This document shows, in pieces, positions 6,306-23,738 of a stretch of DNA of 64,000 nucleotides. The notes below the pieces were generated by a model, which worked only from the letters and a program-made list of their open reading frames with translations, did not search any database and was not told the origin of the DNA. The stretch covers positions 2,627 to 66,626 of the forward strand of contig CAMDJM010000016.1 in NCBI GenBank assembly GCA_945900785.1, in the 5' to 3' direction. The DNA is from Akkermansia muciniphila. Its GTDB lineage: Bacteria > Verrucomicrobiota > Verrucomicrobiia > Verrucomicrobiales > V1-33. A program made the position numbers and the translations under genes. Numbering within the stretch: position 1 is the stretch's first letter; each line of letters starts with the position of its first letter.

Positions 6306-7730
6306 TCATGGGGAAGCCCGCAGATCATAGCAGATCAGACGGGGAGCCTTGTCCGTGACTTTGTCAGGCTCATTTTGCATCACATAGAGCAGGCCGTGGC
6401 TGAGGGCCGGGAGCGTCCAGGAATGCTCGGCGGTGAATAATTGCGCTGTGCTCAGGCGCTTCGCCCCGGCGGGGGAAAGGTCCAGCCAGCAGAGGCTGCC
6501 CCACTCACCGAGGCACAGGAACTGGGATCCTACCTTCAGGAGGCTGCCGCGGTAGAGACTCATGGGCAGGGTGGCTCCGTTTTTCCCCGGTGCCTCCCAT
6601 TCCATCTTTTCATGCCAGAGCCGGCGGCCGGTGGTGGCGTCCTGACAGATCAGTTCACAGGAGCGCTCCTTTTCGCCGGAGAAGGCGTAGAGGTGTCCTT
6701 CATGGTATACGGGCGTCATCCAGTGGCAGCCGAAGGCGGGGTCGTTCCAGAGCGCGGATAATTTCCCCTCCGCATCCGTCTGCAGCATCACGCTGCCATT
6801 TTGATCATGACCGCGGTCCACATAGGCATGGGAAATGAACACCCGGTTTTCCCCGCAAAGCACGGGAGAGGCGGCGTTGACGCTGGGATAGCGCTGGGCC
6901 CGCCAGGGGAAGCTGCTTTCCATTTTTCCCGTGGCAGGATCCACCACGACGAGGCCACCGGTGGAAGGCTGGCTTTTCCCGCCGGTGAAAAATAGCACCC
7001 GGTCCGTGCCATGCCATTTTGCCGGCACCGGGGAGGAATAACTTTGCCCCCAGGGATGCTGCACGATCCATTTTTCGGCTCCGGTATTTTTATCAAAGCC
7101 AATCACACACTGACCATTCCCGCCGCCCACATTCACCAGCACTACCTCCCCCTGCACCAGAGGGCTGGAGCCGGAACCGAAGAAATACTTCTGCACCTCA
7201 TATTTCGTCTGGCAATCCACCTCCCAGATCAGTTTGCCGCTGGCCAGATCCACGCATTTCAGCCAGCTGGTGATCCCGAAGCTGTAGACCTTTCCCCCGC
7301 TGATCACTGGACCGGCCCGCGGGCCTTCCCCATAGCCGAAGTCATCGGTATATTCCGCCGGGTAGGCATAACGCCAGAAGCGCTTCCCCGTCCCCGCTTC
7401 CAGGCAATCCAGGGTTTCCAGGCCCTTCACCCGGTGAAACAGCACCAGCCGGTCCCCTGTGATCGCGGGGCAGGCATAGCCCTCACCTTTTTCCGCTTCC
7501 CAGACCACCGGTGGTCCGGACTCCGGGAAATCCTGCCGGATCCCGGTTTCGCCGGAAACCGGTGCCTCATGCACCCCGTGGAACCGGGGCCAATCTTCAG
7601 ACTTCAAATCCGCCGCGCGCGCCCGGGGTGCGGCGTGAAAGGTCAACCCATCCCACGCCGCTGCTTCGTCTGCCGCAGCGCGTTCCACCATCGATCCAAC
7701 CAAAAGACCCATCAGGAGAAAATGTCGCAT
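6306..7730 (-). CDS. PQQ-like beta-propeller repeat protein (BamB-like fold)
   Basis: Signal peptide and repeated motifs of the type G.V..G...G.L.CLD..TGK..W (LDCLEAGTGKRFW, LKCVDLASGKLIWE, GFDKNTGAEKW, VVVDPATGK, LICQDATTGRRLW). Confidence 0.8.
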   Translation of the reverse strand: MRHFLLMGLLVGSMVERAAADEAAAWDGLTFHAAPRARAADLKSEDWPRFHGVHEAPVSGETGIRQDFPESGPPVVWEAEKGEGYACPAITGDRLVLFHRVKGLETLDCLEAGTGKRFWRYAYPAEYTDDFGYGEGPRAGPVISGGKVYSFGITSWLKCVDLASGKLIWEVDCQTKYEVQKYFFGSGSSPLVQGEVVLVNVGGGNGQCVIGFDKNTGAEKWIVQHPWGQSYSSPVPAKWHGTDRVLFFTGGKSQPSTGGLVVVDPATGKMESSFPWRAQRYPSVNAASPVLCGENRVFISHAYVDRGHDQNGSVMLQTDAEGKLSALWNDPAFGCHWMTPVYHEGHLYAFSGEKERSCELICQDATTGRRLWHEKMEWEAPGKNGATLPMSLYRGSLLKVGSQFLCLGEWGSLCWLDLSPAGAKRLSTAQLFTAEHSWTLPALSHGLLYVMQNEPDKVTDKAPRLICYDLRASP

Positions 7731-7937
7731 GATCCGCCTCTACCACAGCCCGCTGCCGGGCGGAAAGCCGGAAAATCAAAGAATCGCTACCCGGTCCGCT
7801 TGGATCGCCTGGATCAAGCCTTCCGCCGGGAAAATAATGCAGCTGATCCTTTAAAAAATCCCTTGCCGTCGCCGAAGGAGCCGTTTATAGCAGTTGCCCG
7901 CCCGTTCCCTGGAATTACCAGCAGCAGGGCAGGTTTA

Positions 7938-8010
7938 GGCCCGATAGCTCAGTTGGTAGAGCAGTGGATTGAAGATCCTCGTGTCGGCGGTTCAAATCCG
8001 TCTCGGGCCA
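7938..8010 (+). tRNA. tRNA-Phe (anticodon GAA)
   Basis: GGCCCGATAGCTCAGTTGGTAGAGCAGTGGATTGAAGATCCTCGTGTCGGCGGTTCAAATCCGTCTCGGGCCA. Cloverleaf with 7-bp acceptor stem, D-arm GCTC/GAGC, anticodon loop TTGAAGA and T-arm GGCGG/CCGTC with a TTCAAAT loop. Close to E. coli tRNA-Phe. CCA is not encoded. Confidence 0.9.
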
Positions 8011-8088
8011 CCTCCTTGATTTTCAGTAAGTTACAATGGGAAATTAGAGGTTTATGCTAAAATGGCAACACTTATTGGCAACACTATT

Positions 8089-9849: not shown

Positions 9850-10689
9850 ATGAAATTACCTGAAGGCAAAAGCCGCCTCGATCTCGTCAAAGCCGGCATC
9901 AATTCCCTCAACATCCTGCCCAAACGGGGCCGCTTCATCGTTTCCATTCAAAAACTGCTCGAAGATCCCGACAACGAGCGCCGCACGTTCCGGGGCATGG
10001 AAGGCCTCATCGCCTCTATCCGGGCGCACGGCATCGTGGAACCCATCACCGTGACCCCGGAGGGAGACCATTTCCGGATCCTCACCGGTCACCGGCGGTA
10101 TCGCGCAGCCAAAGCCATCGACCTTACGGAAATCGAAGTCATCTCCCGCGATCCCGAAGATGCCCTCACCCGTCGAAGGAAGAGTATCATTTCCAATATG
10201 CAGCGTGAGGACATTGGAGCCATCGAGATGGCCGAAGCCCTGCAAACCCTGCTTGATGAGGATAAAAGCATTGCGACCCAGCGGCAGCTTGCCGGACTGA
10301 TAGGGAAGAGCGAAGGATGGGTGAGCGAGATGCTCCGTATCCTGACGCTTTCCGCCAAGCACCAGGAACAACTTCGGACGTCCCAAGTTTCCGTATCATA
10401 CGATAGCGCCATGCGCATCGCGCGGTGCGAGCCTGCGCTCCAAGCCGACCTCATCGCCGCCACCCTGAGAGGGGAGAGCACCCGCGAAATCCGCAGCCGC
10501 ATCACCGCCAGCAAAGGCCCATCAAAAGGGAAGCAGGGCAGGGGAGCAAACCCCAATCACCCCGCCACCCCGGTGGTCACGTTTTCTGAAATCTACGAAG
10601 GCTGCACCGCCATCGTGCGCGGCCCGGAAGGGGAAAGCACCCGGGAACACATGCGCACCGCCGTGCAAAAGCTCCTCAAGCAGTTGTAA
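9850..10689 (+). CDS. parB: ParB/Spo0J-like partition protein (ParB N-terminal domain + HTH)
   Basis: IVEPITV....HFRILTGHRRYRAAK is the ParB box. QRQLAGLIGKSEGWVSEMLRIL is the HTH. It lies immediately downstream of parA. Confidence 0.85.
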   Translation: MKLPEGKSRLDLVKAGINSLNILPKRGRFIVSIQKLLEDPDNERRTFRGMEGLIASIRAHGIVEPITVTPEGDHFRILTGHRRYRAAKAIDLTEIEVISRDPEDALTRRRKSIISNMQREDIGAIEMAEALQTLLDEDKSIATQRQLAGLIGKSEGWVSEMLRILTLSAKHQEQLRTSQVSVSYDSAMRIARCEPALQADLIAATLRGESTREIRSRITASKGPSKGKQGRGANPNHPATPVVTFSEIYEGCTAIVRGPEGESTREHMRTAVQKLLKQL

Positions 10690-10806
10690 ACAATGCCACG
10701 CCAGACCACACCAAACGAAATGAGTCAAGCCCCCCTATTTACAGGCTGTTTTTCAAGTTCGCCCAAAGGGCTCGACAACTGCTCCGATGCCTGCTAAAAT
10801 TGTTCC

Positions 10807-11079
10807 ATGAACGCCACCTTGGAACGTATTTTGCATGACGTGGAACAACTGCCTCAACAGGAACAGTGTGAACTCACAGCCTACCTCAATCAACGCCTCG
10901 AATCACAATTTGAAGCTGACGATGCTGAAGTCGCAGCGGCTTGGGAATCTGAAATAAATGAGCGGGTCGCCAGCATCATCACGGGCAAGGCTGAGCTTAT
11001 CCCCGGAGACGAGTTCGAGGCCCAGATGGCCAGTTTCATGTCTGACCTTAAAGCGGGAAAGACTCCGGCAGCCCTATGA
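10807..11079 (+). CDS. Putative addiction-module antitoxin (TIGR02574-like)
   Basis: ILHDVEQLPQQEQCELTAYLNQRLES...DAEVAAAWESEINERVASIITGKAELIPGDEF matches the 'putative addiction module component' pattern. Its stop overlaps the downstream toxin start (ATGA at 11076-11079). Confidence 0.7.
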   Translation: MNATLERILHDVEQLPQQEQCELTAYLNQRLESQFEADDAEVAAAWESEINERVASIITGKAELIPGDEFEAQMASFMSDLKAGKTPAAL

Positions 11080-11399
11080 TGCCATGGGAAATTCTCTCAT
11101 CTGCCCGCTCCGAAATTTCCGAAGTTTAACGGAATTTCGGAATCTTTGATCCCCGACTTGCCGACGATTTTTGGATCCTTTTTGTTGCCAAAATTGCGCA
11201 AGCTCGCCGGACTCCCAAACTGTATCGTGTCCGAAGAAATCACATCCGCCGCATCAACCTCGGCCCGCAATTTAAAGAGTGGTTCATCGCCTATATGCTC
11301 TGGAATGGAAAGCTCATCGTTTTGGCACTTGCCCATGCCAAACGCCGGCCATTTTACTTTATCGGCAGAGTCACCACCGCAAAGCGCCGCCACTCATAA
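11076..11399 (+). pseudogene. ParE/RelE-family toxin with an in-frame TAA at codon 18 (11127-11129)
   Basis: One frame reads MMPWEILSSARSEISEV*RNFGIFDPRLADDFWILFVAKIAQARRTPKLYRVRRNHIRRINLGPQFKEWFIAYMLWNGKLIVLALAHAKRRPFYFIGR.... The C-terminal part has the typical ...I.Y......I.VLA..H.KRRP signature. Confidence 0.6.
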
Positions 11400-11533
11400 G
11401 TAATGCTGATTCCCCCGCTTTCCTGTCGCAAACAGATATTGTGCGACACTGCAAATCCCTCTCAACCAGGCCGCCATTTCCCAATCCGCAGATTTCCTCC
11501 AAAGGCCTCATCCGTCCTTTTTGCCCCATCAGT

Positions 11534-11786
11534 CCTATCGGCCACACCCGCCGCGATCATCATCGCGGTTTTTTCATGTTCGGCGGAATCGTCCTATCGG
11601 ACATCCCATGCAGGAGGCCTATCGGCCCGACCGCCCAATTCCAGGAATGGGCCTGCCGACGACCCCAACATACATGGTATGTCGGGGCTATCGCCCCATG
11701 AAATGCCACGGCACGGCTTAACCAAGCCGTCACAGCTCCCCCACGCGTTCGGGCTCAACGCCCGACTTCGGGCTTTTTCCTATCGG
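11534..11786. repeat. Four exact CCTATCGG iteron-like motifs (plus one GCTATCGC variant)
   Basis: CCTATCGG occurs at 11534, 11593, 11618 and 11779, and GGCTATCGCC at about 11687. All lie within about 250 bp of non-coding DNA downstream of the par/TA genes. Confidence 0.6.
11551..11574 (+). terminator. Rho-independent terminator candidate
   Basis: CCGCGAT-CATC-ATCGCGG stem-loop followed by TTTTTT, about 150 nt after the toxin pseudogene. Confidence 0.55.
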
Positions 11787-12369
11787 CTACCGGGTGCTGC
11801 CGGTTCCTAACCGTCACTGACAATCACCAAAAAGCCCGAAGTCGGCCGCTTCCGGCTAGCGCCGTCGCCCGACGCGTGGGGGCACTACGGGTTCTAAAGG
11901 ACACCACTAACTTCACGGGTTCACTTCGCGCACCCCTTCCCTGACGGGCGACGACCTCCTGCGGACGACTTCGGCTTTCCCGGAATCACCACCGGTTCGC
12001 TGTAGGAGCAAAAGCTCCCGGCGCGCCCCCCGGCCCCACTGGGCCGGACGACAGCGGAACTTCGGACGCCCGAAGTTCGACCCTTCGCGCCGCCGCTCCC
12101 TTGTTTTAACTTTTACGCTTCGGCTCTCCTGCCGAAGGCGGATGCCGACCTCCGGTGCCTGACGGGATGATTTCCGGATCCCATACGGGAGCCGGTCACG
12201 TGATGCCCTGCGAGGATCATTGATCATTGGGATGCACTTACCCGCTTACCCGGTCAAAAGGAAGAAAGGGTTGCTATCCAGTGGTGAACCCTGCAAAGGA
12301 GTGCTGAATAGCAGCATGCCGCACCTGAAAAATTTACAATCTGGTCCACCCGAAGCCCGGCGGTTCGGG

Positions 12370-12951
12370 ATGATCACGCAATGGTTTGATGAGAAGGGAT
12401 ATGGTTGGGTGGAGTCCGGTGGGAAGCGTTACTTTGCCCACATCAAGGAATTCGAACCGGGTCAGCGCAGACCAAAGAGCGGCGAGGAGGTGCGCTTCAT
12501 ACCGGGCTTTGATCTGGGATGGCGGCCTTATGCCAAAGGCTTGACCTTGGTGAAGGCCGGCAAGGTCCAATCGGGCACGGGTGCCCTGATTCTGTTTTGT
12601 CTCTTGTTGGTGTTGCCGCTGCTGGCCCTATTGTGGCTGCCGCCGCCGTGGTGGATGGGGGCAGGAGGGATGCTGATCGTTTCTGCCATCACCTACGCCA
12701 TGTATGCCCATGACAAAAAGCAGGCGGTTTCCCAGGGATGGCGGATATCGGAAAGTTCTTTGCACCTGGGCGAGTTGCTTGGTGGCTGGCCTGGAGCGTT
12801 TATTGCCCAATGGAGGCTGCGCCACAAATGTTCGAAACCCGGCTATCAGTTCGTTTTCCGCGCGATTGTCCTACTCTACCAGATTGCTGCGCTGGATGTG
12901 ATTCTGCACCAGCGCCTGAGCAAGGCGGTGATGGCTTTTTTGAACCGGTAA
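12370..12951 (+). CDS. Cold-shock domain + DUF1294 membrane protein
   Basis: ORF 12220..12951 trimmed to ATG 12370. MITQWFDEKGYGWVES..KRYFAHI.EF is CSD-like. It is followed by a TM region and LGELLGGWPGAFIAQWRLRHKCSKPGYQ, the DUF1294 signature. Confidence 0.8.
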   Translation: MITQWFDEKGYGWVESGGKRYFAHIKEFEPGQRRPKSGEEVRFIPGFDLGWRPYAKGLTLVKAGKVQSGTGALILFCLLLVLPLLALLWLPPPWWMGAGGMLIVSAITYAMYAHDKKQAVSQGWRISESSLHLGELLGGWPGAFIAQWRLRHKCSKPGYQFVFRAIVLLYQIAALDVILHQRLSKAVMAFLNR

Positions 12952-13432
12952 CACGGTGGTTTTGAGCATGTATGGCCCCGCTCCATGCGCTCGATTCCCC
13001 TCTTCCCCTCATCGTGGTGGCGGCACATCGAACGGTAAATGATAGTAGCCCATGATCGCCTTTGATCGCTCGTAAATGGCCCGCTCGGAAAATCCGGCGC
13101 GTTCACACATCTCATTCATCGGAGCCCAGCCCTTCATGATGAATTGCAGCAGCTCCCGTCGGTCGATCTGCACCTGCGACGAGGCCTCGCCCCCCTTCGT
13201 CTGGCCCTCCAGATGGTCCCCGGGAGGTGGCAAGGGACGGGAATTTATGACAACCGGCAGACTTGCATACCCTGCAGGGCGGTGAAAGGGTGTTCACACA
13301 TCAAGAGCCTCTGCCGCAAGGCGGAGACAGCAACCTAGCCGAGACGCCAAGGTGCCTTCCGCAGACTTATCATCTGCGGGATGAGTCGAGTGGGACCAGA
13401 CAGACCCACCGAAAAACAGTCTCCCGTAATGA

Positions 13433-13474
13433 AAACGCCCGGTTTGATGTCCTCAGGCCGGGCGTTTCGTTTTT
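13433..13474 (+). terminator. Rho-independent terminator candidate
   Basis: AAACGCCCGG ... CCGGGCGTTT, a 10-bp stem, followed by a TCGTTTTT tract. Confidence 0.45.
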
Positions 13475-13513
13475 CGGACTCCTGATGTGGACCAATCCTA
13501 ACTCCATATCAAA

Positions 13514-13744
13514 ATGACCGCCTGCCAGCCCATCCTTTCCCGCCGCCAGCGCCCGGCGGGGGAAAATCATCACCTCTGGAACAACCATGGAACCTGGTGG
13601 TTCCACGGCACCGTTCACCAGCCGGATGGCACCTCGGTGCGGGTCCGCTGCAGCTTGAAGACGACCGACCCGTCCGTCGCCCGGCGTCGCCGGGACCGCA
13701 TCCTGACGGCAGCGGCGGCCGCCAACCAACCTGTCAAAGCGTGA
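13514..13744 (+). CDS. Small protein resembling the N-terminal arm-type DNA-binding domain of tyrosine integrases
   Basis: 76 aa. NHGTWWFHGTVHQPDGTSVRVRCSLKTTDPSVARRRRDRIL resembles the '...WWF.....DG...R.SL.T.D...A...RD.IL' integrase N-termini. No core-binding or catalytic domain follows. It ends 18 nt before the AAA+ gene. Confidence 0.4.
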   Translation: MTACQPILSRRQRPAGENHHLWNNHGTWWFHGTVHQPDGTSVRVRCSLKTTDPSVARRRRDRILTAAAAANQPVKA

Positions 13745-13761
13745 AAACGAAACATCCTGAC

Positions 13762-15237
13762 ATGTCCCATTCCTCACCGGCATCACCTCCCGCCGTCCTT
13801 TTCTGTCCCGGTCTGTCCGGTGACGGACGCCTGCTTGCTCCCGGCTGGCTGCGCCACCTTGGGGTCTACGGCTACGATGCCGTGGAGGACATCATCCTCG
13901 CGGCCCTCATTTCCGGCGACCCGCTGCTGCTCATCGGCAAGGCCGGCACGGGGAAAACTTTCCTCCTCAACAGCCTGAGCGAAGCCCTCGGCCTGACGCA
14001 CCGCCACTACAACGCCAGCCTGATTGCTTTCGATGACCTTGTCGGGTTTCCCTTTCCCGACAAGGATGGCACGGCGATCCGTTATATCCAAACCCCGGCC
14101 ACGATCTGGCAGGCGGAAGCCGTGCTCATTGACGAGCTGAGCCGCTGCAAACCGGAACACCAGAACCGACTGTTTTCCCTCGTCCATGAGCGCCGCATCC
14201 AAGGGCTCGACTTGCCGGAACTTCGCTACCGGTGGGCGGCCATGAACCCGTGCGGACCGGCGGACGGCGAGGATTTTTATGAGGGTTCGGAGTCGCTCGA
14301 CCAAGCGCTGGCGGACCGCTTTGCCTTCATCATTGAAGTGCCCGACTGGGATGGCCTCGTGGACGCGGACCGTCGGCTGGTGGCCGACGCCCGGGGCATC
14401 AACCGCCCTTCGTTCGATGCGGTCGGGCTGAGCCGGGCCGTGGAGGAAGGACGGCGGCGATTCGAGTCCGCCCCCGACGAACTGCATGAGGCGGCCCTGA
14501 CTTATGCGTCGGTGGTGGCCACGCAGTTGCTCCAGCCGGGCATCCGGCTTTCGCCCCGTCGGGTGCGCCAGTTCTCACGGAACCTCATCGCTCTCACGCT
14601 GGTGAGCGGCGGGCAGCCCCTGAGCGGATTGTTCCGCAGCGGGCTGACGAATTCCCTGCCGCAACTCGCATGGGGTGTCCGGGTCGCCGACGCGGTGCTG
14701 CGCGGGGCTCATGCGGCGGCGTGGGATTTCCTGACCCGGAACGAGGAAAGCCGCTGGCTGTCCCGCGTGCTCCACGAGAAGGATCCCGCGAAGCGGTGCC
14801 GCCTGCTGCTGGGCGGTGCCCCGTCACGGGACACCGTGACCATGGCAGTCCGCCAGTCGCTCATCCAGTTGCCTGCTCCGGAGGCTGCGGTGCTGGCCTT
14901 GGCGCTGCTTCCGGTGGCGCAACAGAGGCCGACCATTCTGGGTGAGGAAGCGCTGGCGGCCATCGTGGAAGTGGCGGCCCCCATTCTGGAAGTCCAGGGC
15001 GAGGTGAAATGGCGGCTCCGGGAGGGCCTTCAGCCTGACACCAATCCGCACCCGGCCCTCAGTGAATGCAGCGCGTTGTTGCCATCACTGCGGGGAGCCC
15101 GGCAGGCCCGCGCCCGGCAGCTGTTTTACCACTGCATCGTGCATGAATACCCCATCCCGGACGCCGCGCAGCTGGAGCACTGCCTCGACCGTGCCATGCG
15201 CGCCGTGAAGCCCTTTCTCACCCAAACGAAACCATGA
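13762..15237 (+). CDS. RavA/MoxR-like AAA+ ATPase with a long helical C-terminal extension
   Basis: ORF 13597..15237 trimmed to ATG 13762. Walker A LLLIGKAGTGKTF, Walker B AVLIDELSR, sensor-1 region RWAAMNP, LADRFAFII. Spacing and motif order resemble RavA/MoxR. Confidence 0.85.
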   Translation: MSHSSPASPPAVLFCPGLSGDGRLLAPGWLRHLGVYGYDAVEDIILAALISGDPLLLIGKAGTGKTFLLNSLSEALGLTHRHYNASLIAFDDLVGFPFPDKDGTAIRYIQTPATIWQAEAVLIDELSRCKPEHQNRLFSLVHERRIQGLDLPELRYRWAAMNPCGPADGEDFYEGSESLDQALADRFAFIIEVPDWDGLVDADRRLVADARGINRPSFDAVGLSRAVEEGRRRFESAPDELHEAALTYASVVATQLLQPGIRLSPRRVRQFSRNLIALTLVSGGQPLSGLFRSGLTNSLPQLAWGVRVADAVLRGAHAAAWDFLTRNEESRWLSRVLHEKDPAKRCRLLLGGAPSRDTVTMAVRQSLIQLPAPEAAVLALALLPVAQQRPTILGEEALAAIVEVAAPILEVQGEVKWRLREGLQPDTNPHPALSECSALLPSLRGARQARARQLFYHCIVHEYPIPDAAQLEHCLDRAMRAVKPFLTQTKP

Positions 15238-15821
15238 CCATCCTGACCCTTATTGCCCGGTTCCTTGCTGCGGTGATCCAAGGCTGGTTTCCCGAGCCGG
15301 CCGGTGCCGTGACCGGGACGGGCGGCTGCCGGAATCCCGGGAATGGCGGCAGGCGGAACGGCGATCCCCTGCGGCACGCCAACACGGGCGGTCCGCGCTC
15401 CCGGGTGGTGTCCACCGCCGTCGTGAGCCGGATGCTGAGTGACGGCTCGGGAATCCTCGGACTGAAGTCGCTGGGAACGTATCGTCTGCCCCGGCAGCCG
15501 GTGGCCAATTCACTCCGCGAGTTCGCTATGACCCTGCTGAGCCGCGCCGGATTTCTCACTCCGGAGGAGGCGTGGGAGGCCCATGCGTCGCAACTTCCCG
15601 CCGGGGTCGCCCTCGTGGTGGACTCCCCTCCCGGCCCGGAGGTCGATGACGCCGGGGAGGATCCAGTCCCGCTCCTGCGCAGAGCCTTGGTGCTGGGCAA
15701 GTGCAGCGGCAGCCTTTTCAGCCCTGACCGCCCGTTGATCTGGTCCGAGCGGAGACTTGCGCGCTCGGTGCGTCTGGTCCTCTGCGACACCGCAACCTTC
15801 GCCCGCAATGACGATGACTGA
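15234..15821 (+). CDS. Hypothetical protein (operon member, no recognisable domain)
   Basis: The ATG overlaps the AAA+ stop (ATGA 15234-15237). The codon third position is GC-rich like its neighbours. The end overlaps the next gene by 14 nt. Confidence 0.5.
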   Translation: MTILTLIARFLAAVIQGWFPEPAGAVTGTGGCRNPGNGGRRNGDPLRHANTGGPRSRVVSTAVVSRMLSDGSGILGLKSLGTYRLPRQPVANSLREFAMTLLSRAGFLTPEEAWEAHASQLPAGVALVVDSPPGPEVDDAGEDPVPLLRRALVLGKCSGSLFSPDRPLIWSERRLARSVRLVLCDTATFARNDDD

Positions 15822-17220
15822 GACCCCGTTCGACCGCCGCCATATCGAAGTCGTGCTCGCGGAGTTCGTGGAGGACAATCCGCTGGCTTGCGCGGGGATT
15901 CTCTCGGTCGCCCGCCTTGAGTTCACGACGGAAATTCCGACGCTGGCAGTGACCCTCGGCGATGATCTGCCGCGCCTTCTCATCAATCCGGAATTCGTCG
16001 CCGCGCACATCCGGACCGAGGATGACCTGCGGGCCGTGCTGCTCCATGAATTCCTCCACGTGCTGCTGGGCCACACGAAGCTTTTCAAAAAGATGGACGA
16101 GGCGACCAACCTCGCCCTCGATGCGGTGATCAACCACATCGTGCAGCGTGAACTGGGGGTAGCCTCCGGCGAATTCTTCCGGCGGTATTACACGCCCACG
16201 GGTGACGGCTGCCCGCTTTGGCTCCTGCGTCCGGACGCCCCGGGCGACATTCGGCCTCGAAACCCCGAGGCTGCGGCACAGCGGTCGCGAAAGCTGTCCG
16301 GCCCAAGGGAATTGGCTAACTTCGCTCTCCAATTTGACCACCGTTCGAGGATTCACCTGCTCCGCAGCGGGCTGGCCAACGGAACGGTGCTGGCCGATGA
16401 TGTGCTTGACGCTTTCGATGCGCTTAAACTTGCTATTCCGGGCAGGATCATCCTGATTGGCAATCACCGGGAGGAGGGCCCCATGCACCCCGCCAACCGC
16501 GAGCGGCTCGACCGGCTTTTCCAGCAACTCGACGGGAGCGGCATTTTCCGCAACCCGGGGGAGCATGGTGCCGGACCGGAACCCTATCAGGCGGCATGGA
16601 GCGCGGCTGATCCCTCGCGGAAATGGTGCGCGGAAACGGCGCGGATGCTGCAAAAACTCCTCGTCCCCCATCCGCGAAGCCGTCCGGTGCTGGACGGACA
16701 GGTTTCCTTCCATCTCCCGGTGGCCAACCCGAGTGACCGCCGCGCCGCCCTGCGCTCGCTGTGGAACCCGCTGGTGCCCGACTTCCACTGGCAGGCCGAC
16801 AGCCACCGCCCGCGCGGGCTGGCCAGCATCTATCTTGATGTCAGCGGCTCCATGAATCCGGAACTTGAGTTGCTGACCGGTCTGCTCTGGCGGCTGCGCC
16901 GGTGGATCCAGTCGCCCTTCCATGCCTTTTCCAACGAAGTGGCCCCCGCCAATCTCGTCGGCGGAAAACTGGTCACCAACACCACCGGCGGCACCTGCTT
17001 CAATGTTGTCCTCGAGCACATCCTGAAGCACCGGCCGCAAAAGTCGCTCATCGTCACGGACGGCTATATCGAAAAGCCGTGCATCCGCCTGCTCCGTCAA
17101 CTCAAGGCCAGCGGCGAAGCCATTCATGTCCTCGTTTCGGCTCACGGGACGTCAGCGCCCTTCGACCTCCACGGCATCCCCCGGACCATCCTCCCCAACA
17201 TCAACCCCAAGTCATCATGA
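15808..17220 (+). CDS. Putative metallopeptidase (HExxH) + VWA domain protein (DUF2201_N / DUF2201-like)
   Basis: ORF 15757..17220 trimmed to ATG 15808. AVLLHEFLHVLLGHT...NLALDAVINHIV is the HExxH peptidase-like N-domain. The C-terminal part has IYLDVSGSMNPE (MIDAS DxSxS) ...TNTTGGT...LIVTDGY, a VWA fold. Confidence 0.8.
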   Translation: MTMTETPFDRRHIEVVLAEFVEDNPLACAGILSVARLEFTTEIPTLAVTLGDDLPRLLINPEFVAAHIRTEDDLRAVLLHEFLHVLLGHTKLFKKMDEATNLALDAVINHIVQRELGVASGEFFRRYYTPTGDGCPLWLLRPDAPGDIRPRNPEAAAQRSRKLSGPRELANFALQFDHRSRIHLLRSGLANGTVLADDVLDAFDALKLAIPGRIILIGNHREEGPMHPANRERLDRLFQQLDGSGIFRNPGEHGAGPEPYQAAWSAADPSRKWCAETARMLQKLLVPHPRSRPVLDGQVSFHLPVANPSDRRAALRSLWNPLVPDFHWQADSHRPRGLASIYLDVSGSMNPELELLTGLLWRLRRWIQSPFHAFSNEVAPANLVGGKLVTNTTGGTCFNVVLEHILKHRPQKSLIVTDGYIEKPCIRLLRQLKASGEAIHVLVSAHGTSAPFDLHGIPRTILPNINPKSS

Positions 17221-18329
17221 TCCGCACCAGCGAAGCCGTTCTGCGCGGCCACCCTGACAAATTCTGCGACCAGGTCGCCGACCGCATTCTCTATCATGCC
17301 TGCGGGCTGGACCCGGAGGCCTATGGTCAAATCGAGGTCGCCGCATGGTCGGACCAGGTCTTCCTCACCGGGGCCACCGTGACCCGGGAACCCTTGGAAA
17401 CCGTCTTCGCCGATGTCGTCCGCACGGTTGGTCAGGAAATCGGCTATACGCCGGGCAACTCCATCGATGCGAACCGCTATCAGGTGCACGATCACGTCTG
17501 CCGCCAGGTCCGTGATCCCCGGGAATGGACCCGGCACATCAATGATCAGGCGGTGGTCACGGGATGGGCCGGCTACGACCGGGCCACCTGCTATCTGAGC
17601 CCGGAACACTTCCTTGCCCACACCCTGCGCGAGGCTCTCGATGCCGCCTGTGCCTTTGGCGGGCCCCTTGAAGGCCACGGGCCGGACGGCAAGCTCATCG
17701 TCCATCTTGCGGAAACGCCGGCGGTTCGCGGGACCGCCGCGCGGTGGCAGGTCCAAACGATCCTCGTGACCCTCCAGCAGAAGCGCGGACCCTCCTTCCT
17801 CGACTTCCAGGGCGAGGTCGCGGCTGTAGTCCTCGAGACCCTGCGCACCGTTGCGGAAGCCGATGCCCGCTGGGCTTTCGACCGCCCATCCGCCCGCCTG
17901 CTCGTGAATCCCAACGGGCCCTTCTTCGATGGCGGCTCCAACAGTGACAACGGTCAAACCGGCCGGAAACTGGTGGCCGATTATTATGGCCCCCGCGTTC
18001 CCATCGGCGGTGGAGCCCTCAGCGGCAAGGACCTGACGCACATCGACCGCGCGGCTGCCTGCGCCGCCCGCCAGGCCTGCGTCGAGGCCGTGCATCACGG
18101 CGCGAAGGATGCCCATGTCCGCCTCACCTACGCGCCGGGCCTTGCGGAGCCGCTCGATGTCGCATGGTCGTTTTCGGACGGAGGGCGACCGCCCCAAGGA
18201 GTCCAGTTTGATTTTTCAAGCATTACCGAAGTCACCCGGGGCGCATGGCGCAGCCTGCGCGAATCCGGTCGGGGCGATCACTTCTTTGACCTCCATCACC
18301 GGTGGAACAATCCGATCTATTGCCCGTAA
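17217..18329 (+). CDS. Divergent S-adenosylmethionine synthetase (MetK / methionine adenosyltransferase) paralog
   Basis: ORF 16902..18329 trimmed to ATG 17217, which overlaps the previous stop (ATGA). SEAVLRGHPDKFCDQVADRIL, GPDGKLIV, NPNGPFFDGGSNSDNGQTGRKLVADYYGP and GGGALSGKDLTHIDRAAACAARQ align with the MetK signature blocks. Confidence 0.8.
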   Translation: MIRTSEAVLRGHPDKFCDQVADRILYHACGLDPEAYGQIEVAAWSDQVFLTGATVTREPLETVFADVVRTVGQEIGYTPGNSIDANRYQVHDHVCRQVRDPREWTRHINDQAVVTGWAGYDRATCYLSPEHFLAHTLREALDAACAFGGPLEGHGPDGKLIVHLAETPAVRGTAARWQVQTILVTLQQKRGPSFLDFQGEVAAVVLETLRTVAEADARWAFDRPSARLLVNPNGPFFDGGSNSDNGQTGRKLVADYYGPRVPIGGGALSGKDLTHIDRAAACAARQACVEAVHHGAKDAHVRLTYAPGLAEPLDVAWSFSDGGRPPQGVQFDFSSITEVTRGAWRSLRESGRGDHFFDLHHRWNNPIYCP

Positions 18330-18377
18330 TGCAGCCAAAGCCGCGCTTCTCGCGGAGGGGTGCTGGACGGTCGGGAC

Positions 18378-20240
18378 CACATTTAGCCCGACTTCGCCGA
18401 CTCGACATGTTATAAAACTTTTTTCATGTTATTTCAGCGTGCAATTCGTTGATATTCAATGCAGCGATTTCCAAAATGGCTTGTAGTGCAGACCTTGGGT
18501 GTTGCGGGATTAAAAATCTGGCTACCTTCTGGAGCCATCATGTTCCTGCGTTGATCCAAACGTCGGAAAAATGGCAAAGAACACCTCTACTGGAGTGTGG
18601 TCGAGAATCGGCGCCTGCACGACGGCAGGGTGCTCCAGCGGCATGTGCTTTACCTCGGGGAACTCAATGGCCGACAGGAAGCGTCCTGGCGCAAGACCGT
18701 TGATCATTTCGGCCAGGACGATGCCGCACCGCAGCAGGTGGCGCTCTTTCCTGACGATCTGGCCCCGGCAGCCAGCCCGGACGACACCCTGCCCATTGTC
18801 AGCCTCCGGCTCGGAGCCATGTCCCTGCGCCGCCCCCGTCAGTGGGGGGCCTGCTGGCTGGGGTGCGAACTCTGGCAACAACCCGGCTTGGACGCCTTCT
18901 GGCGCGAACATCTGCCGCCCGGCCGCGAGGGGACCCGCTGGGATCTGGTGCTGCAGACCTTGGCGCTCTATCGGCTCATCGACCCCGGCTCCGAGTGGCG
19001 GCTGCACCGGCATTGGTTTGACCACAGCGCCATCGCCGAACTGTTGGGCAGCGACTTCACCCTGGCCGATCCCCACCGCCTCTACGCCTGCCACGATAAA
19101 CTACTGACCCATAAACGCGCCCTCTTCGACCACCTCACCGGACGCTGGCGCGACCTCTTCAAGGCAAAATACGAAGTCCTGCTTTACGATCTGACCAGCA
19201 CCTATTTTGAAACACACTGGAAAACGATCTCCTTGATCGCGAATGGAAACACGCCCGGCCCAACGTCCGCGTAAAACTCCTGCCAAAAGAAGGCGAAACC
19301 TACGTCCTGGCGGAGAGCGGAGACCGCATCCTCAAAGAGCGCTTCATGCGCCGGCGGCGGCGGCGCAAATACCCCGCCGCGCTCGACGCCATCACCCAGC
19401 GCATGCGTCCTCTCAAATGCGACGCCGTCCACCAGGCCATCGGAGCCGCGAAAAAAGAAGCCGGGCGGGACGCCCGGTTTGTCACCATCAGCGTCCAGCA
19501 CCACGTCAGGGGCAAAGACAAAGGCAACGGGAAGGACAAAAGTGAAACCGCCACCCTGACCTACAAACTGGACCGCCAAAAACTCCGCGAAGCCCGCCGG
19601 CGCGAAGGACGTTACCTGCTCCGGACCAACCTGACAGAAGAAGATCCTGCCAAACTTTGGGAATACTACCTTCAGCTCACCGAAGTCGAGCAAGCCTTCA
19701 AAGAACTCAAAGGCGACCTCGCCCTGCGGCCCATCCATCACCAGCTGGACCATCGCATCGAAGCCCACATGATGATTCAGTCGCCGCCTCACGGCTCCTT
19801 CACCCCTGCGGGGCTGCTCCTTCGTCGCAGTCTGTCCCGGCCCATCCCGGGGGGCCTCGGCTCATCTCCTTCCTTGCCTGCGCCCTGCAAATCACCCTCA
19901 AGGCCCGGCTGAAGCAAAGCGCCACCGGCCTCACCCCCCGGGCCGTCCTTGAGAAATTTGCTGCGGTGCAAATGCTCGACGTCCACCTCCCCACCACTGA
20001 TGGGCGCGAAGTCGTCCTAACCCATTACACCCAGCCAGAAAAAGAACTCCAGCTCCTGCCCGACCAGCTCAAACTAACCCTCCCCGCCCAGCCGCCCCCG
20101 AAGATTACCGCCCCGGCAAAACCCACCTGAATGGTCCCCGCGTGTAGTGCAGACCTTTCTATTTCCAGAAAATCGTTTTGTTGATAATCAACGATATCTG
20201 CACCAACCCTTTTCCCAGTCCGCGAAGTCGGGCTAATGCC
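18378..20240 (+). mobile_element. IS1634-family (IS4-like) element remnant nested between ~100-bp inverted arms
   Basis: Inverted arms end in TTAGCCCGACTTCGC (18383-18397) and its complement (20222-20236). A 15-bp direct repeat TGTAGTGCAGACCTT at 18482-18496 and 20143-20157 flanks the transposase remnant. Confidence 0.6.
18540..20130 (+). pseudogene. IS1634-family transposase pseudogene (nonsense, internal deletion, frame-breaking insertion)
   Basis: MFLR*SKRRKNGKEHLYWSVVENRRL...LYLGELN...LLYDLTSTYFE, with TGA at 18552. The frame jumps near 19210 and the central DDE segment is missing. It resumes with ...GRYLLRTNL...LWEYYLQLTEVEQAFKELKGDLALRPIHHQ..RIEAH. About 90 extra nt follow (19770-19860), then ISFLACALQITLKARL... 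in a third frame. Confidence 0.75.
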
Positions 20241-20587: not shown

Positions 20588-21655
20588 TCAGGGGACCGGC
20601 ACATTCGCCAGCACATTCTCCACGGTGCTGATGGGGTCTCCGGTTTGGCCGTTCCGTTGGTCCTTGAGCAGCAGGCGGTGGGCCAGCACGGCAGAGGCGA
20701 TTTTTTTCACGTGATCCGGGTAGACGGCCTTGGCCTCTTCCAGCCAGGCCGCCGCCTGGGCGGCACGCATCACCGCGATGGCGGCCCGGGCGGACAGGGA
20801 GCCCCGTCCGGCATCCGCGCGGCGCAGGCTTTCGCAAACCAGCGTGATGTAGCGGCAGACCCGGTCGTTCACCGGCACCGCAGCCGCTTCCGCCTGGGCG
20901 CGCCGGATGTCATCGGCGTGGAGCAGCGGCGTCGTTTCCACAAACTGCGGGCCCCGCTGGGCGTGTAGCTGGAGCAGCCTGGCCTGGGATTCCAAATCCG
21001 GCAGCGTCATATGGATGCTGAGGAGAAAGCGGTCCAACTGCGGCTCCGGCAGCGGGAAGGTTCCGGTGGAAAAGGTATTGTTCTGGGTCGCGATTACCAT
21101 GAAGGGCGAGGTCAGACGGCGGGTGACCCCGTCCACCGTGACCTGCTGCTCGCTCATGCACTCGAAGAGCGCACTTTGAATCCGCGGGCTGGTGCGGTTG
21201 ATTTCATCGGCCAGAACGATGTTGGAGAACACCGGCCCGGGAATGAATTGAAATTCCCCGCTCGCCTGGTTGAAAATGGAGTAGCCCGTAATGTCCGCCG
21301 GCAGCAGATCCGGCGTGAATTGGATCCGGCTGAAGGCGGCGTCGATGCTGCGGGCAAGCGTGGAGGCGAGACTGGTTTTTCCGATGCCGGGTGCCCCCTG
21401 GATCAGGACGTGACCATTCGCCAGCAGCGCCGTGATCAGCAGAAAAGCGGGCGTTTCAGCACCCAGGACGGTGCCGGTCAGTCTTTGGTGGAGGGCTTGC
21501 AGTTGTTGTCTCACGGAAGGGCAGGAAGTTGAAGGGAAAATAGGCCAACAGGAAAGGCCTGCGGTATCGGACAGGATCCTCCAGCTTTCCACCTTGGAAA
21601 CCTCAAACTTCATTCCGTTCACTGCGTCCGGAACGGGGGAATTACGCGAATTCAT
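20588..21655 (-). CDS. MoxR-family AAA+ ATPase (AAA_3 type)
   Basis: GHVLIQGAPGIGKTSLA (Walker A), NIVLADEINRTSPRIQSALFECMSEQQVTVDG (Walker B and sensor), VIATQN, LDRF.L, and a C-terminal lid ...AVLAHRLLL. The true start is probably internal (for example GTG at 21514), because the first ~45 aa look non-native. Confidence 0.85.
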   Translation of the reverse strand: MNSRNSPVPDAVNGMKFEVSKVESWRILSDTAGLSCWPIFPSTSCPSVRQQLQALHQRLTGTVLGAETPAFLLITALLANGHVLIQGAPGIGKTSLASTLARSIDAAFSRIQFTPDLLPADITGYSIFNQASGEFQFIPGPVFSNIVLADEINRTSPRIQSALFECMSEQQVTVDGVTRRLTSPFMVIATQNNTFSTGTFPLPEPQLDRFLLSIHMTLPDLESQARLLQLHAQRGPQFVETTPLLHADDIRRAQAEAAAVPVNDRVCRYITLVCESLRRADAGRGSLSARAAIAVMRAAQAAAWLEEAKAVYPDHVKKIASAVLAHRLLLKDQRNGQTGDPISTVENVLANVPVP

Positions 21656-21971: not shown

Positions 21972-23279
21972 CTAGTGCCAATCGGCGGGCAGCTTGATGG
22001 GGGTTTCCCTCAGGATCATCAGGATGGTTTCCCGTTCCTCCCGGCTGAGGTAGCGGTAGGGCGGCGGGGCTTCCTCCCAGGTGAGAATCTGATGCAACCG
22101 CCCGTAAATCAGGTCCAGCAGGGGACGGGGCAGGGCAGACCATTGCCGACTGTAGATGAGGTAGCTGCAGCGGTGGCGGAAGAGGCGGTTGCCGAGGTGG
22201 AAGTCGGTGAGGGACTTCCCGTTTTTGGCGGCAGGATGATTCTGGCGGAACTCCTGCTGAAACGCGGCATTCCCTGAGATGCCGCCCTCCGGCAGCTCCG
22301 CCTCGTCCCGGAACAACAGGGCGTCCAGGATTCTGCCCACGTGGCTCTCCGCGATGATCCGGGCGGTGCCGGTGAGTTCATCCGTCGGAGGGTCGCCCGA
22401 TTCAGCACGCAAGGCCTTTTGCCGGACGATGGCCGCGCGCACATCGTAAGAGGCCTCCGTGAGGCGGCTGGACATCATGATCTGATGTTCCAGCACCATC
22501 AGAGTGACAATATCGCTGGTGCCGCGCGGGTAGTGTTTCACCGGGAAAAAACGCTCCAGACTGGCGAGGTTGGAGGTTTGCGCGGTGTCCAGAGTCACGC
22601 TGCGGCTGCCGTGTTCTGCCGCAATCGCATTGCCCCGGTGGACGGTGGTGCCATGTGTGCCAGTGACGAACCAGCCTCCCCAGCGGGTGGTGAGCGGGCT
22701 GGTGTGATCAATCAGGGAAGTGCCCGCCTGAAAGAGCACACTGCCATCCTGCCCGGGGAACACCGAGCGGATCATCAGTCCAGGCACCCGGTTTGTCATG
22801 TTATTCCCGTGGCAGTCGAGACAAGCCTGGGGCCGGTCCAGCCGGGGGTGGGGCCGGTCCGGCCGGTGGAAGTCGAGCAGGTAAAAAATCGGCCCCAGGA
22901 TGGGATCGATCATCGCAAATTCCATCAGCCCCCCGGGCACCCACCCGGCATAACTCTCGTCATTGAAATACAGCGCCCGGGGATTCCAAGGAAAGATGTG
23001 CTCCTTTTGCACACTGGTTTTGGAAAAAACCAGCGTCTGGGTGGATTCCGCAATCTTCAATTGTGCCAGCACCGCCCGCATCGCCTCCAGATCAGAGCCG
23101 GTCGGCAGGGAGAAGGTTCCAGATTGCAGTTCCGCATCCAGCACGCTGCCTGAATCGCTCCGCCCCGCCCCCCAATAATCGTGGGGGGGCTCCTCGTAGG
23201 CAAGGGTCTGGGCAGGCGCAAATCCAGCGCTGCCAGCCAGGAAAAGACAGCAGCAGAGCAGGCGGAAACGGAGCAGCAT
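21972..23279 (-). CDS. Secreted conserved hypothetical protein with a single CxxCH haem-binding motif
   Basis: ORF 21972..23321. The MLLRFRLLCCCLFLAGSAGFAPAQ signal starts at 23279. ACLDCHGNN is the CxxCH motif. Confidence 0.6.
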   Translation of the reverse strand: MLLRFRLLCCCLFLAGSAGFAPAQTLAYEEPPHDYWGAGRSDSGSVLDAELQSGTFSLPTGSDLEAMRAVLAQLKIAESTQTLVFSKTSVQKEHIFPWNPRALYFNDESYAGWVPGGLMEFAMIDPILGPIFYLLDFHRPDRPHPRLDRPQACLDCHGNNMTNRVPGLMIRSVFPGQDGSVLFQAGTSLIDHTSPLTTRWGGWFVTGTHGTTVHRGNAIAAEHGSRSVTLDTAQTSNLASLERFFPVKHYPRGTSDIVTLMVLEHQIMMSSRLTEASYDVRAAIVRQKALRAESGDPPTDELTGTARIIAESHVGRILDALLFRDEAELPEGGISGNAAFQQEFRQNHPAAKNGKSLTDFHLGNRLFRHRCSYLIYSRQWSALPRPLLDLIYGRLHQILTWEEAPPPYRYLSREERETILMILRETPIKLPADWH

Positions 23280-23738
23280 GGGGTTCACTCTACTACGGCC
23301 CGGGGTCGGGCGATCCTTCATTCGGGTGTTGGAAGCCGCTGCGTTACAAAAAAAGACGGAATGTGCAGTCCTGCGGATCCCGGCAGAGCCGCTTGCCTTG
23401 CCGCCTGCCCCTGACTTTAATCATGAATATCAACAATCTGACTTCCCGCCTGCGCTTGGCAAAATCAGCCTTTGCCGGCCACCGTGAGGAGGAGCGCCGA
23501 CGCATCAAGGCCGCCACCCGCGCCCTGCGCACCCATGCCGAAAAAATCGCCTGGCACCTCGCCGAAATCGCCCGGGACCGGGCTGCTTCCCCCGGGATCG
23601 ATCTCCGTCCGGCCCGCTGAAATGATCGCCCGGCCGCAAGCCCGGGCCGGTGATTCCTCCCACCGAAACGGCCACCCTCCAGGAAACCCGGATTTTTCCC
23701 CTGTCCCGGGACCGCTGGCCGTGGCAGCATGCGTGGCC

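Follow-up and report, generated by a model that had tools for sequence, protein, structure and literature searches.

We analyzed a 64,000-nucleotide stretch of Akkermansia muciniphila DNA (contig CAMDJM010000016.1 of assembly GCA_945900785.1), referred to as the window, and focused on four plus-strand genes at positions 13762–18329, designated g1 to g4. They encode a MoxR-class AAA+ ATPase, a small protein of a module-specific family, a protein combining an HExxH motif with a VWA domain, and a divergent homologue of the S-adenosylmethionine (SAM) synthetase MetK. We propose, with a probability of roughly 60%, that these genes form an accessory module for SAM shortage, in which a riboswitch-controlled MoxR–VWA remodeller serves a MetK-fold client. 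This proposal is based on the precedents of the CbbQO and NorQD systems, on the constant coupling of the module to a MetK-fold protein, and on the SAM riboswitches found upstream of it. The functional statements below are drawn from sequence, predicted structure and gene context.

The four genes g1 (13762–15237, 491 aa), g2 (15234–15821, 195 aa), g3 (15808–17220, 470 aa) and g4 (17217–18329, 370 aa) overlap at their successive ends by 4, 14 (or 8) and 4 nt. The tetranucleotide ATGA forms both the g1/g2 junction (15234–15237) and the g3/g4 junction (17217–17220). At the central junction, the stop codon of g2 (TGA, 15819–15821) is met by two in-frame starts of g3, an ATG at 15808, which gives the 14-nt overlap, and an ATG at 15814, which gives the 8-nt overlap (ATGACTGA) and is the choice of the public gene call on an identical contig. 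This contig, an 88-kb metagenome entry in ENA, is identical to the window, and an independent gene caller found the same genes there. An earlier note on this DNA, made from the letters alone, had described four translationally coupled same-strand reading frames for a MoxR-class ATPase, an unrecognized protein, an HExxH+VWA protein and a divergent MetK; our coordinates and junctions agree with that description, and the motifs it quoted (GKAGTGKT, VLIDELS, AAMNP, HEFLHVLLGH, DAVINH and DVSGSM) are all present. It had let the operon begin at 13762. The four-gene core stands, but the start does not, as a riboswitch, a terminator and an additional small gene upstream belong to the same unit. This gene, g0 (13514–13744, plus strand), is a 76-aa open reading frame (ORF) with the motif HHLWNNHGTWWFH...RRRD that ends 17 nt before g1. 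It is recognized by its positional conservation, being located directly upstream of g1 or of an operonic metK in 15 distinct Verrucomicrobiota loci, and gene calling on the identical public contig predicts it as well. Its sole family match, to DUF6538, is weak (19 bits vs a cut-off of 27).

The arrangement of these genes is far beyond chance: about 80 unrelated genomes share the order, and the overlaps in them are mostly of 4 nt. A scan with a g3 profile, using one genome per species, returned at least 415 candidate relatives, the best 80 of which were analyzed; the gene order is the same in nearly all of these genomes, which represent more than 15 phyla. The best 80 include Verrucomicrobiota, Kiritimatiellia, Omnitrophota, Armatimonadota, Acidobacteriota, Chloroflexota, Cyanobacteria, Actinobacteria, Elusimicrobia, Bacteroidia, Gemmatimonadota, Lentisphaerae, Latescibacterota and all classes of Proteobacteria, and the closest of them is a Verrucomicrobia metagenome-assembled genome with 90% identity in g3 (locus L010). 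With custom hidden Markov models, g1 and g2 were detected in all 66 loci with enough upstream DNA (66/66). g4 adjoins g3 in 67 of 73 loci, is displaced by 1–1.7 kb in two and is absent in four. Overlaps of 4 nt are the commonest junction at all three boundaries (53/79, 52/82 and 54/74). A more divergent subtype (33–38% identity) retains the order g1-x-g3-g4, and the four genes keep their order and their overlapping ends in six annotated neighbourhoods, drawn from Akkermansiaceae, Elusimicrobia, Betaproteobacteria and unbinned contigs. Searching metagenome contigs in the other direction, with a g4 profile, yielded at least 587 relatives, and g3 lies upstream of g4 in 50 of the 52 cases with enough upstream DNA. 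Whether the four-gene adjacency extends to other genomes, a point raised in the earlier note, is thus answered in the affirmative by this neighbourhood survey. Homologues of g4, g3 and g2 number from hundreds to thousands, nearly all of them without a name, and the g4 family is patchy even within Akkermansiaceae. The only clearly cultured isolate among the 80 genome loci is Novosphingobium sp. NPDC080210 (L053, NZ_JBNNWL010000013.1). The two g4 genes lacking g3 upstream are those of loci L134 and L165. In L134 (4414–5784), the N-terminus of the g4 homologue, including GHPDK, is replaced by a segment that resembles, by eye, 1-aminocyclopropane-1-carboxylate deaminase and other pyridoxal phosphate enzymes; this gene, which comes after an ORF of 1467 aa, is probably chimeric or a pseudogene.

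g4 matches the Pfam families S-AdoMet_synt_N and S-AdoMet_synt_C and aligns with MetK structures in the PDB at an E-value of about 1e-28, with an identity of roughly 30% as estimated by eye, but scores only 138.4 bits against the NCBIfam metK equivalog TIGR01034, for which the cut-off is 309.4. With both MetK domains present and the equivalog cut-off missed, g4 is the divergent MetK homologue that it had been taken for. To compare the active sites, 126 family members were aligned with E. coli MetK, and twelve residues that contact ATP, the triphosphate or metals were checked. Ten are identical in all members (H14, D16, E42, D118, D163, K165, D238, K245, K265 and D271, 126/126), K17 is Lys or Arg, and R244 is Arg in 125 of 126. 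A different picture emerges for three other positions across the 126 members: E55 is replaced by Gly, Ala, Ser or Thr and is never Glu, K269 is always His, and Q98 is variable. In E. coli numbering these residues are equivalent to Glu70 (E55), Gln113 (Q98) and Lys289 (K269) of the human enzymes, for which roles have been described (PMC6850014). Glu70 and Gln113 of MAT2A hold the main-chain nitrogen and oxygen of methionine, and Lys289 is catalytic, its replacement in MAT1A lowering SAM synthesis while leaving the tripolyphosphatase activity unaffected (PMC6850014). Further departures from canonical MetK are the deletion of GAG from the GAGDQG motif, an invariant Cys95, a nearly invariant Cys17 and a different C-terminus. 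The alignment shows that the predicted ligands of ATP, triphosphate and metal are retained in g4 and that the canonical ligands of the methionine main chain are lost. Because the ATP and metal residues are kept while E55, K269 and Q98 are changed, g4 is probably an active enzyme under constraint that works on ATP with an acceptor site unlike that of MetK. The family may also have a new Cys/His metal site.

Canonical metK genes provide a second link between the module and SAM synthesis. A canonical MetK is encoded upstream on the same strand in 14 loci. These proteins reach 460–562 bits against TIGR01034 in the seven loci scored, and they keep E55 and K269 in the sequences inspected. In four loci metK sits between g0 and g1 and is tightly joined to g1, through a 4-nt overlap in L083 and with gaps of about 10–24 nt in L059, L069 and L016; in five loci it lies 94–224 nt upstream, and in another five it lies 1–3.7 kb upstream with intervening genes. 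At least 10 loci have both g4 and a true MetK. In L059, L069 and L083, g4 is missing and the canonical MetK takes its place, indicating that a MetK-fold protein is the constant partner of g1–g3. The suggestion that the MetK-fold protein is a dedicated client of the ATPase/VWA pair is the best supported of the ideas put forward in the earlier note; the canonical enzyme substitutes for g4 in some lineages. A longer same-strand array in L051 (1478–9000) begins with a SAM-II riboswitch, followed by a 149-aa ORF, a canonical metK, an unknown gene, a PNP_UDP_1 (MtnN-like) phosphorylase gene and two unknown genes, and then continues into g1–g4. The presence of metK and the MtnN-like phosphorylase in this array links the module to methionine salvage.

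SAM-I, SAM-I/IV and SAM-II riboswitches are the classic control elements of metK and met genes. When positions 11000–19000 of the window were scanned with Rfam, a single match was obtained, a full-length SAM-I/IV riboswitch (RF01725) at 13293–13428 with 27.6 bits, short of the 41.1 bits set as gathering score (E = 0.019 when 401 nt were searched). We annotate the element as a SAM-I/IV-type aptamer at 13292–13428 on the plus strand, a variant with inserted hairpins in which the core motifs CAUCAAGAG / CAACCUAGC / GCCAAGGUG / GGAUG are present. Directly 3' of the aptamer, at 13433–13477, a 15-bp GC-rich stem, AAACGCCCGG...CCGGGCGTTT, is followed by the T-run CGTTTTTCGG. This hairpin resembles an intrinsic terminator, and its position is consistent with an expression platform through which SAM would shut off the operon; a comparable hairpin and T-run follow the aptamer in L016 and L019.

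The assignment is strengthened by related loci. SAM-I/IV elements above the Rfam threshold occupy the same position in L016, L032, L040, L071, L072 and L074 (46.9–62 bits), and the one in L016 (46.9 bits) precedes the series g0-metK-g1. SAM-I riboswitches above threshold were found in L038 (78 bits) and L056; that of L038 abuts g1 and has a promoter-like site just upstream. SAM-II riboswitches above threshold are located upstream of the module or of its metK in L005, L006, L051, L055 and L089. A custom covariance model built from seven Verrucomicrobiota copies, the E-values of which are rough, matched 24 genome loci and the window, making 25 in the genome set (seven of them the model's own seeds), as well as seven metagenome loci. 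All matches are on the plus strand upstream of the module, and they extend to phyla not represented among the seeds, namely Armatimonadota, Chloroflexota and Acidobacteriota; in L086 the element immediately precedes the displaced g4. In an alignment of 25 aptamer sequences, itself fitted to the covariance model, 93.6% of the cells are paired and 26 of 33 base pairs show compensatory changes; none of 500 shuffles matches this pairing, and slid controls reach 36–43%. Altogether, a SAM riboswitch of one of the three classes was counted ahead of the module in 37 or more of the 66 loci, typically 46–415 nt from g1. Two of the three classes are structurally unrelated. That three riboswitch classes front the same cassette in different phyla is strong evidence that expression of the operon is meant to rise when SAM becomes scarce. 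Two loci carry more than one element. In L071, SAM-I/IV riboswitches occur in tandem (7306–7398 and 7919–8023), one before a gene for a 209-aa protein and the other before g1, and in L040 a second SAM-I/IV riboswitch (17680–17804, minus strand) lies about 5 kb downstream of the module, presumably serving another gene.

The other proteins of the module were examined for their relationship to known remodelling systems. g1 matches Pfam AAA_5 (37 bits vs a cut-off of 22, E = 4e-9) and has a C-terminal helical extension. Walker A, Walker B (DE), the sensor-1 motif RWAAMNP, ALADRF and SPRR.R are conserved in 68 orthologues. A phmmer search of PDB sequences (E ≤ 0.01) returned midasin AAA domains only, with no RavA, NorQ or CbbQ among the matches. 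Of the previous label, a RavA/MoxR-like ATPase, the MoxR-class (AAA_5) part is retained and the specific reference to RavA is dropped.

In g3, an N-terminal HExxH zincin-like region is followed by a C-terminal VWA domain with a complete metal-ion-dependent adhesion site (MIDAS). The motifs HEFLHvlL.HT, DAvIN, YLDVSGSM, ttGGT and TDGyiE are conserved in 83 orthologues, and HEFLHvlL.HT together with D105 is invariant. A PDB sequence search with g3 gave no match. With its AlphaFold2 (AF2) model, Foldseek ranks NorD of the NorQD complex first among PDB structures (9qhe_G, E = 4e-5); generic VWA domains come next, and the E-values of NorD and the vWF-A domains range from 4e-5 to 1e-3. A weak match to SPRTN (E = 0.08), in which the N-terminal domain is assumed to be involved, is the only structural support for a zincin fold. 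The order of an HExxH block and a VWA fold, previously equated with the DUF2201_N/DUF2201 architecture, is borne out, and many g3 orthologues have a precomputed PF09967 match. The family assignment itself is suggestive and not established, as g3 falls below the gathering scores of both DUF2201_N (PF13203, 21.2 vs 23.2) and DUF2201 (PF09967, 18.1 vs 26.4). DUF2201_N/DUF2201 proteins (putative metallopeptidase plus VWA-like) that pair with AAA_5 ATPases share the domain order with g3, whose own scores stay under both thresholds. DUF2201 is essentially unstudied, with only four incidental mentions in the searchable literature, none of them tied to MetK.

g2 has no match in the Pfam, NCBIfam and PADLOC scans or in the PDB sequence search. 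Its AF2 model has a predicted local distance difference test score of 78 overall and above 90 for residues 80–190, and no relative was found for it in the PDB with Foldseek (best match E = 1.4). These profile and structure searches confirm the earlier impression that the protein resembles nothing recognizable. The family comprises 340 clusters among 1.84 billion representatives, nearly all of similar small size and none much longer, and hence shows no sign of fusion to another domain. Its conserved features are an AN.GGP.SR motif and the C-terminus ELFDPxGFYA, which in Verrucomicrobiota is acidic (DDD/DDE). A relationship to a domain fragment of MetK was ruled out by hhalign against the g4 family, which shows no relation. 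We consider g2 a possible adaptor or substrate of the module.

The closest precedents for this combination are CbbQ–CbbO and NorQ–NorD, which are reported to remodel a dedicated client or insert metal into it (PMC4660213, PMC9976466, PMC13036017). As in these systems, a MoxR-class ATPase and a VWA protein with a complete MIDAS are encoded beside one specific enzyme, and NorD within the NorQD complex is the best structural match of g3. The gene context expected of a MoxR–VWA client activase is what we find, with a coupled MetK-fold gene at 67 of 73 loci and a canonical MetK replacing it at some others, which points to the MetK-fold protein as the putative client. The module differs from CbbQO and NorQD in that a MetK-fold client would be new for the class, the VWA protein bears an N-terminal HExxH zincin-like domain, an extra obligatory protein (g2) is present, g1 is AAA_5/midasin-like without detectable sequence similarity to solved RavA or NorQ structures, and the unit is under riboswitch control. 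With canonical MetK, g4 shares the N- and C-terminal domains, the residues for ATP, Mg/K and triphosphate, and the upstream SAM riboswitches. It is set apart by the missed equivalog cut-off, by the changes at E55, K269, Q98, GAGDQG, Cys95, Cys17 and the C-terminus, and by its coupling to g1–g3.

On the basis of these comparisons, the module would work as follows. When SAM is ample, the aptamer would bind SAM, the terminator would form and the operon would be off; when SAM falls, the operon would be transcribed. The AAA+ hexamer would then dock via the MIDAS/VWA protein and g2 and act on the MetK-fold protein as its dedicated client, which would be g4 or, in Opitutaceae-type loci, the operonic canonical MetK. 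The action could be assembly, metal loading, unblocking or proteolytic maturation, as with CbbQO for Rubisco and NorQD for nitric-oxide reductase. Once activated, g4 would carry out adenosyl transfer and tripolyphosphatase chemistry on ATP with its altered acceptor site. It might make SAM with different kinetics or a different response to inhibitors, or it might adenosylate a methionine-related sulfur compound.

Several observations weigh against this model. The aptamer in the window, taken alone, falls below the Rfam gathering score, and a riboswitch was not detected in 29 of 66 loci, part of which were screened at lower sensitivity. The replacement of E55 and K269 may mean that g4 makes no SAM. 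The activase model leaves the conserved HExxH peptidase domain, g2 and g0 unexplained. The distribution of the module is patchy and looks like that of a horizontally transferred element, and those loci that lie beside restriction, McrBC, DISARM-like, AIPR, toxin–antitoxin or integrase genes would fit a role in conflict.

The strongest competitor to the SAM-shortage model, which we regard as improbable though ahead of the others, is a defence or conflict system, with the MoxR/VWA-peptidase pair controlling a MetK-like effector that would deplete ATP and methionine or produce an adenosyl signal. MoxR–vWA ternary conflict systems have already been proposed by Kaur, Burroughs, Iyer and Aravind in 2020 (PMC7159879), and the module shares with them the MoxR + vWA dyad, a peptidase theme and a patchy spread. 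In favour of this reading are also the occurrence in more than 15 phyla with unrelated flanks, the antitoxin-like ORF, the ParB-like gene and the broken insertion sequence (IS) near the operon in the window, and the defence or mobile neighbours of some loci (AIPR with a DNA methylase; McrBC; an N6_N4 methyltransferase with an integrase; PIN/FitA; and NERD/WYL/ARPP-1 together with Dcm/Vsr/SNF2/MmeI). Other loci sit among housekeeping genes. Across the survey the flanks are heterogeneous: the 120 flanking proteins matched 115 different Pfam families, and apart from metK no neighbour is recurrent. Pooled Pfam and PADLOC scans of these proteins gave few defence matches, in a pooled output that gives no proper rate. 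PADLOC-DB 2.0 has nothing for g2, g3 or g4 and only weak generic P-loop ATPase matches for g1 (E ≥ 5e-5). A search of 72,556 plasmid and 50,697 phage records yielded no copy of the module, and in IMG/VR only four distant partial relatives of g3 were found, none of them shown with the module. It also departs from the published conflict systems, lacking beta-propeller, VMAP and effector-associated domains: g1 scores 19 bits against Pfam bpMoxR (cut-off 27), no beta-propeller or VMAP gene occurs in the cassette at any mapped locus, and PMC7159879 mentions neither MetK, SAM synthetase nor DUF2201. Finally, control by SAM riboswitches and linkage to metK and MtnN-like genes are typical of metabolism.

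The operon had been regarded as the cargo of a decayed mobile island at tRNA-Phe, the gene for which is located upstream at 7938–8012 of the window. Of the ORFs that were scanned or gene-called from tRNA-Phe to the operon, none was recognized as an integrase, and a search of the window for a repeat of the tRNA-Phe 3' end, as an att site, gave no match. A tRNA gene lies within 10 kb in 12 of 60 related loci, which is about the level estimated for chance. These results lend the island no support, and the framing of the operon as mobile and defensive is weakened by the SAM riboswitches, the co-operonic metK, the lack of PADLOC matches for g2–g4, the absence from plasmid and phage records and the heterogeneous flanks.

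Phages are known to attack SAM supply. In a variant of the conflict reading, the module could be a counter-measure to phage proteins that degrade SAM or inhibit MetK, armed by the riboswitch when SAM collapses. In such an immune device, phage SAM lyases or MetK inhibitors would deplete SAM, and the riboswitch would take this as a signal of infection and de-repress the operon. The MoxR/VWA-zincin machine, together with the remodelled MetK paralogue, would then either restore SAM through an inhibitor-insensitive enzyme for methylation-dependent restriction, BREX or DISARM, or arrest the cell through consumption of ATP. We consider this variant a long shot. If true, it would explain the occasional siting of the module beside SAM-dependent restriction systems, represent the first antiviral module triggered by a metabolite riboswitch, and bear on the conflict between phage and host over SAM.

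Next in weight to the conflict reading, at about one chance in eight, would be a regulatory role for g4 as a prozyme-like or dominant-negative pseudo-subunit that hetero-oligomerizes with canonical MetK, with the MoxR/VWA pair exchanging or removing subunits and thereby tuning SAM synthesis. The active sites of MetK are built from residues of both subunits (PMC6850014), g4 lacks E55 and K269 with the rest of the site kept, canonical metK and g4 often share an operon, and g1–g3 also occur with canonical MetK alone. The invariant set of ATP, metal and triphosphate residues and the family-specific invariant residues of the pocket point instead to a working enzyme, and most loci have no second metK nearby. 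That g4 is simply the ordinary housekeeping SAM synthetase of the organism is very improbable despite its MetK fold, the SAM riboswitch upstream and the lack of another metK in the 64-kb window, given its TIGR01034 score (138 vs 309 bits), an E55 that is never Glu and a K269 that is always His, a true MetK at the same locus in at least 10 loci, and the patchiness of the family even within Akkermansiaceae.

We return to the SAM-shortage model to consider what it would add. MoxR–VWA–client systems and riboswitch-controlled metK operons are each known; what seems to be new is their combination, along with the family of g2 and the subfamily of remodelled MetK proteins. In the PMC and bioRxiv literature we found no description of a MetK or SAM synthetase coupled to MoxR, vWA or DUF2201, in agreement with the earlier statement that no described system has a coupled MetK-fold fourth gene. 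Most MoxR AAA+ systems have no known client, and here gene coupling across more than 15 phyla indicates a MetK-fold one. The model would bring a chaperone or protease layer and a new enzyme subfamily into SAM metabolism, which ranks among the best-studied pathways, and would extend the SAM-riboswitch regulon by a new class of genes. The remodelled pocket of g4 hints at an unusual SAM synthetase or else at a new kind of adenosyl transfer. As a compact cassette of five genes with one carrier in a cultured Novosphingobium isolate, the module is experimentally tractable.

Other features of the neighbourhood were also recorded. In the window, the interval between tRNA-Phe and the operon contains, on the plus strand at 9850–11079 and 12370–12951, a ParB_N/HTH_ParB protein, an Unstab_antitox antitoxin-like ORF and a DUF1294 (+CSD-like) protein. 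Directly after g4, a DDE_Tnp_1-type transposase is split into ORFs of 225 and 188 aa (18597–19912, plus strand), apparently a decayed IS. A second MoxR system, which is independent of the module, lies about 2 kb downstream of the operon on the minus strand and consists of a canonical MoxR (AAA_3, AAA_lid_2; 20588–21655) and a 449-aa neighbour without a Pfam match (21972–23321).

In related loci, genes for a family of 218-aa proteins without a Pfam match adjoin the module on its own strand in seven cases (L040, 6710–7381; L005, L009 and L081, upstream; L034 and L018, downstream; and L066) and may be an optional accessory component. DUF3293 proteins occur near the module in L069 (11394–11912, directly after g3), in L083 (6285–6998, about 1.4 kb downstream on the opposite strand) and in L006, where the domain is fused to ADH_zinc_N. 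Proteins of about 1000 aa combining a UvrD helicase with a PD-(D/E)XK domain were seen close to the module in three unrelated loci (L001, 1–2157; L002, 1–1269; L176, 20136–21305), and DUF2779 and ARPP-1 proteins recur near the module in a few loci.

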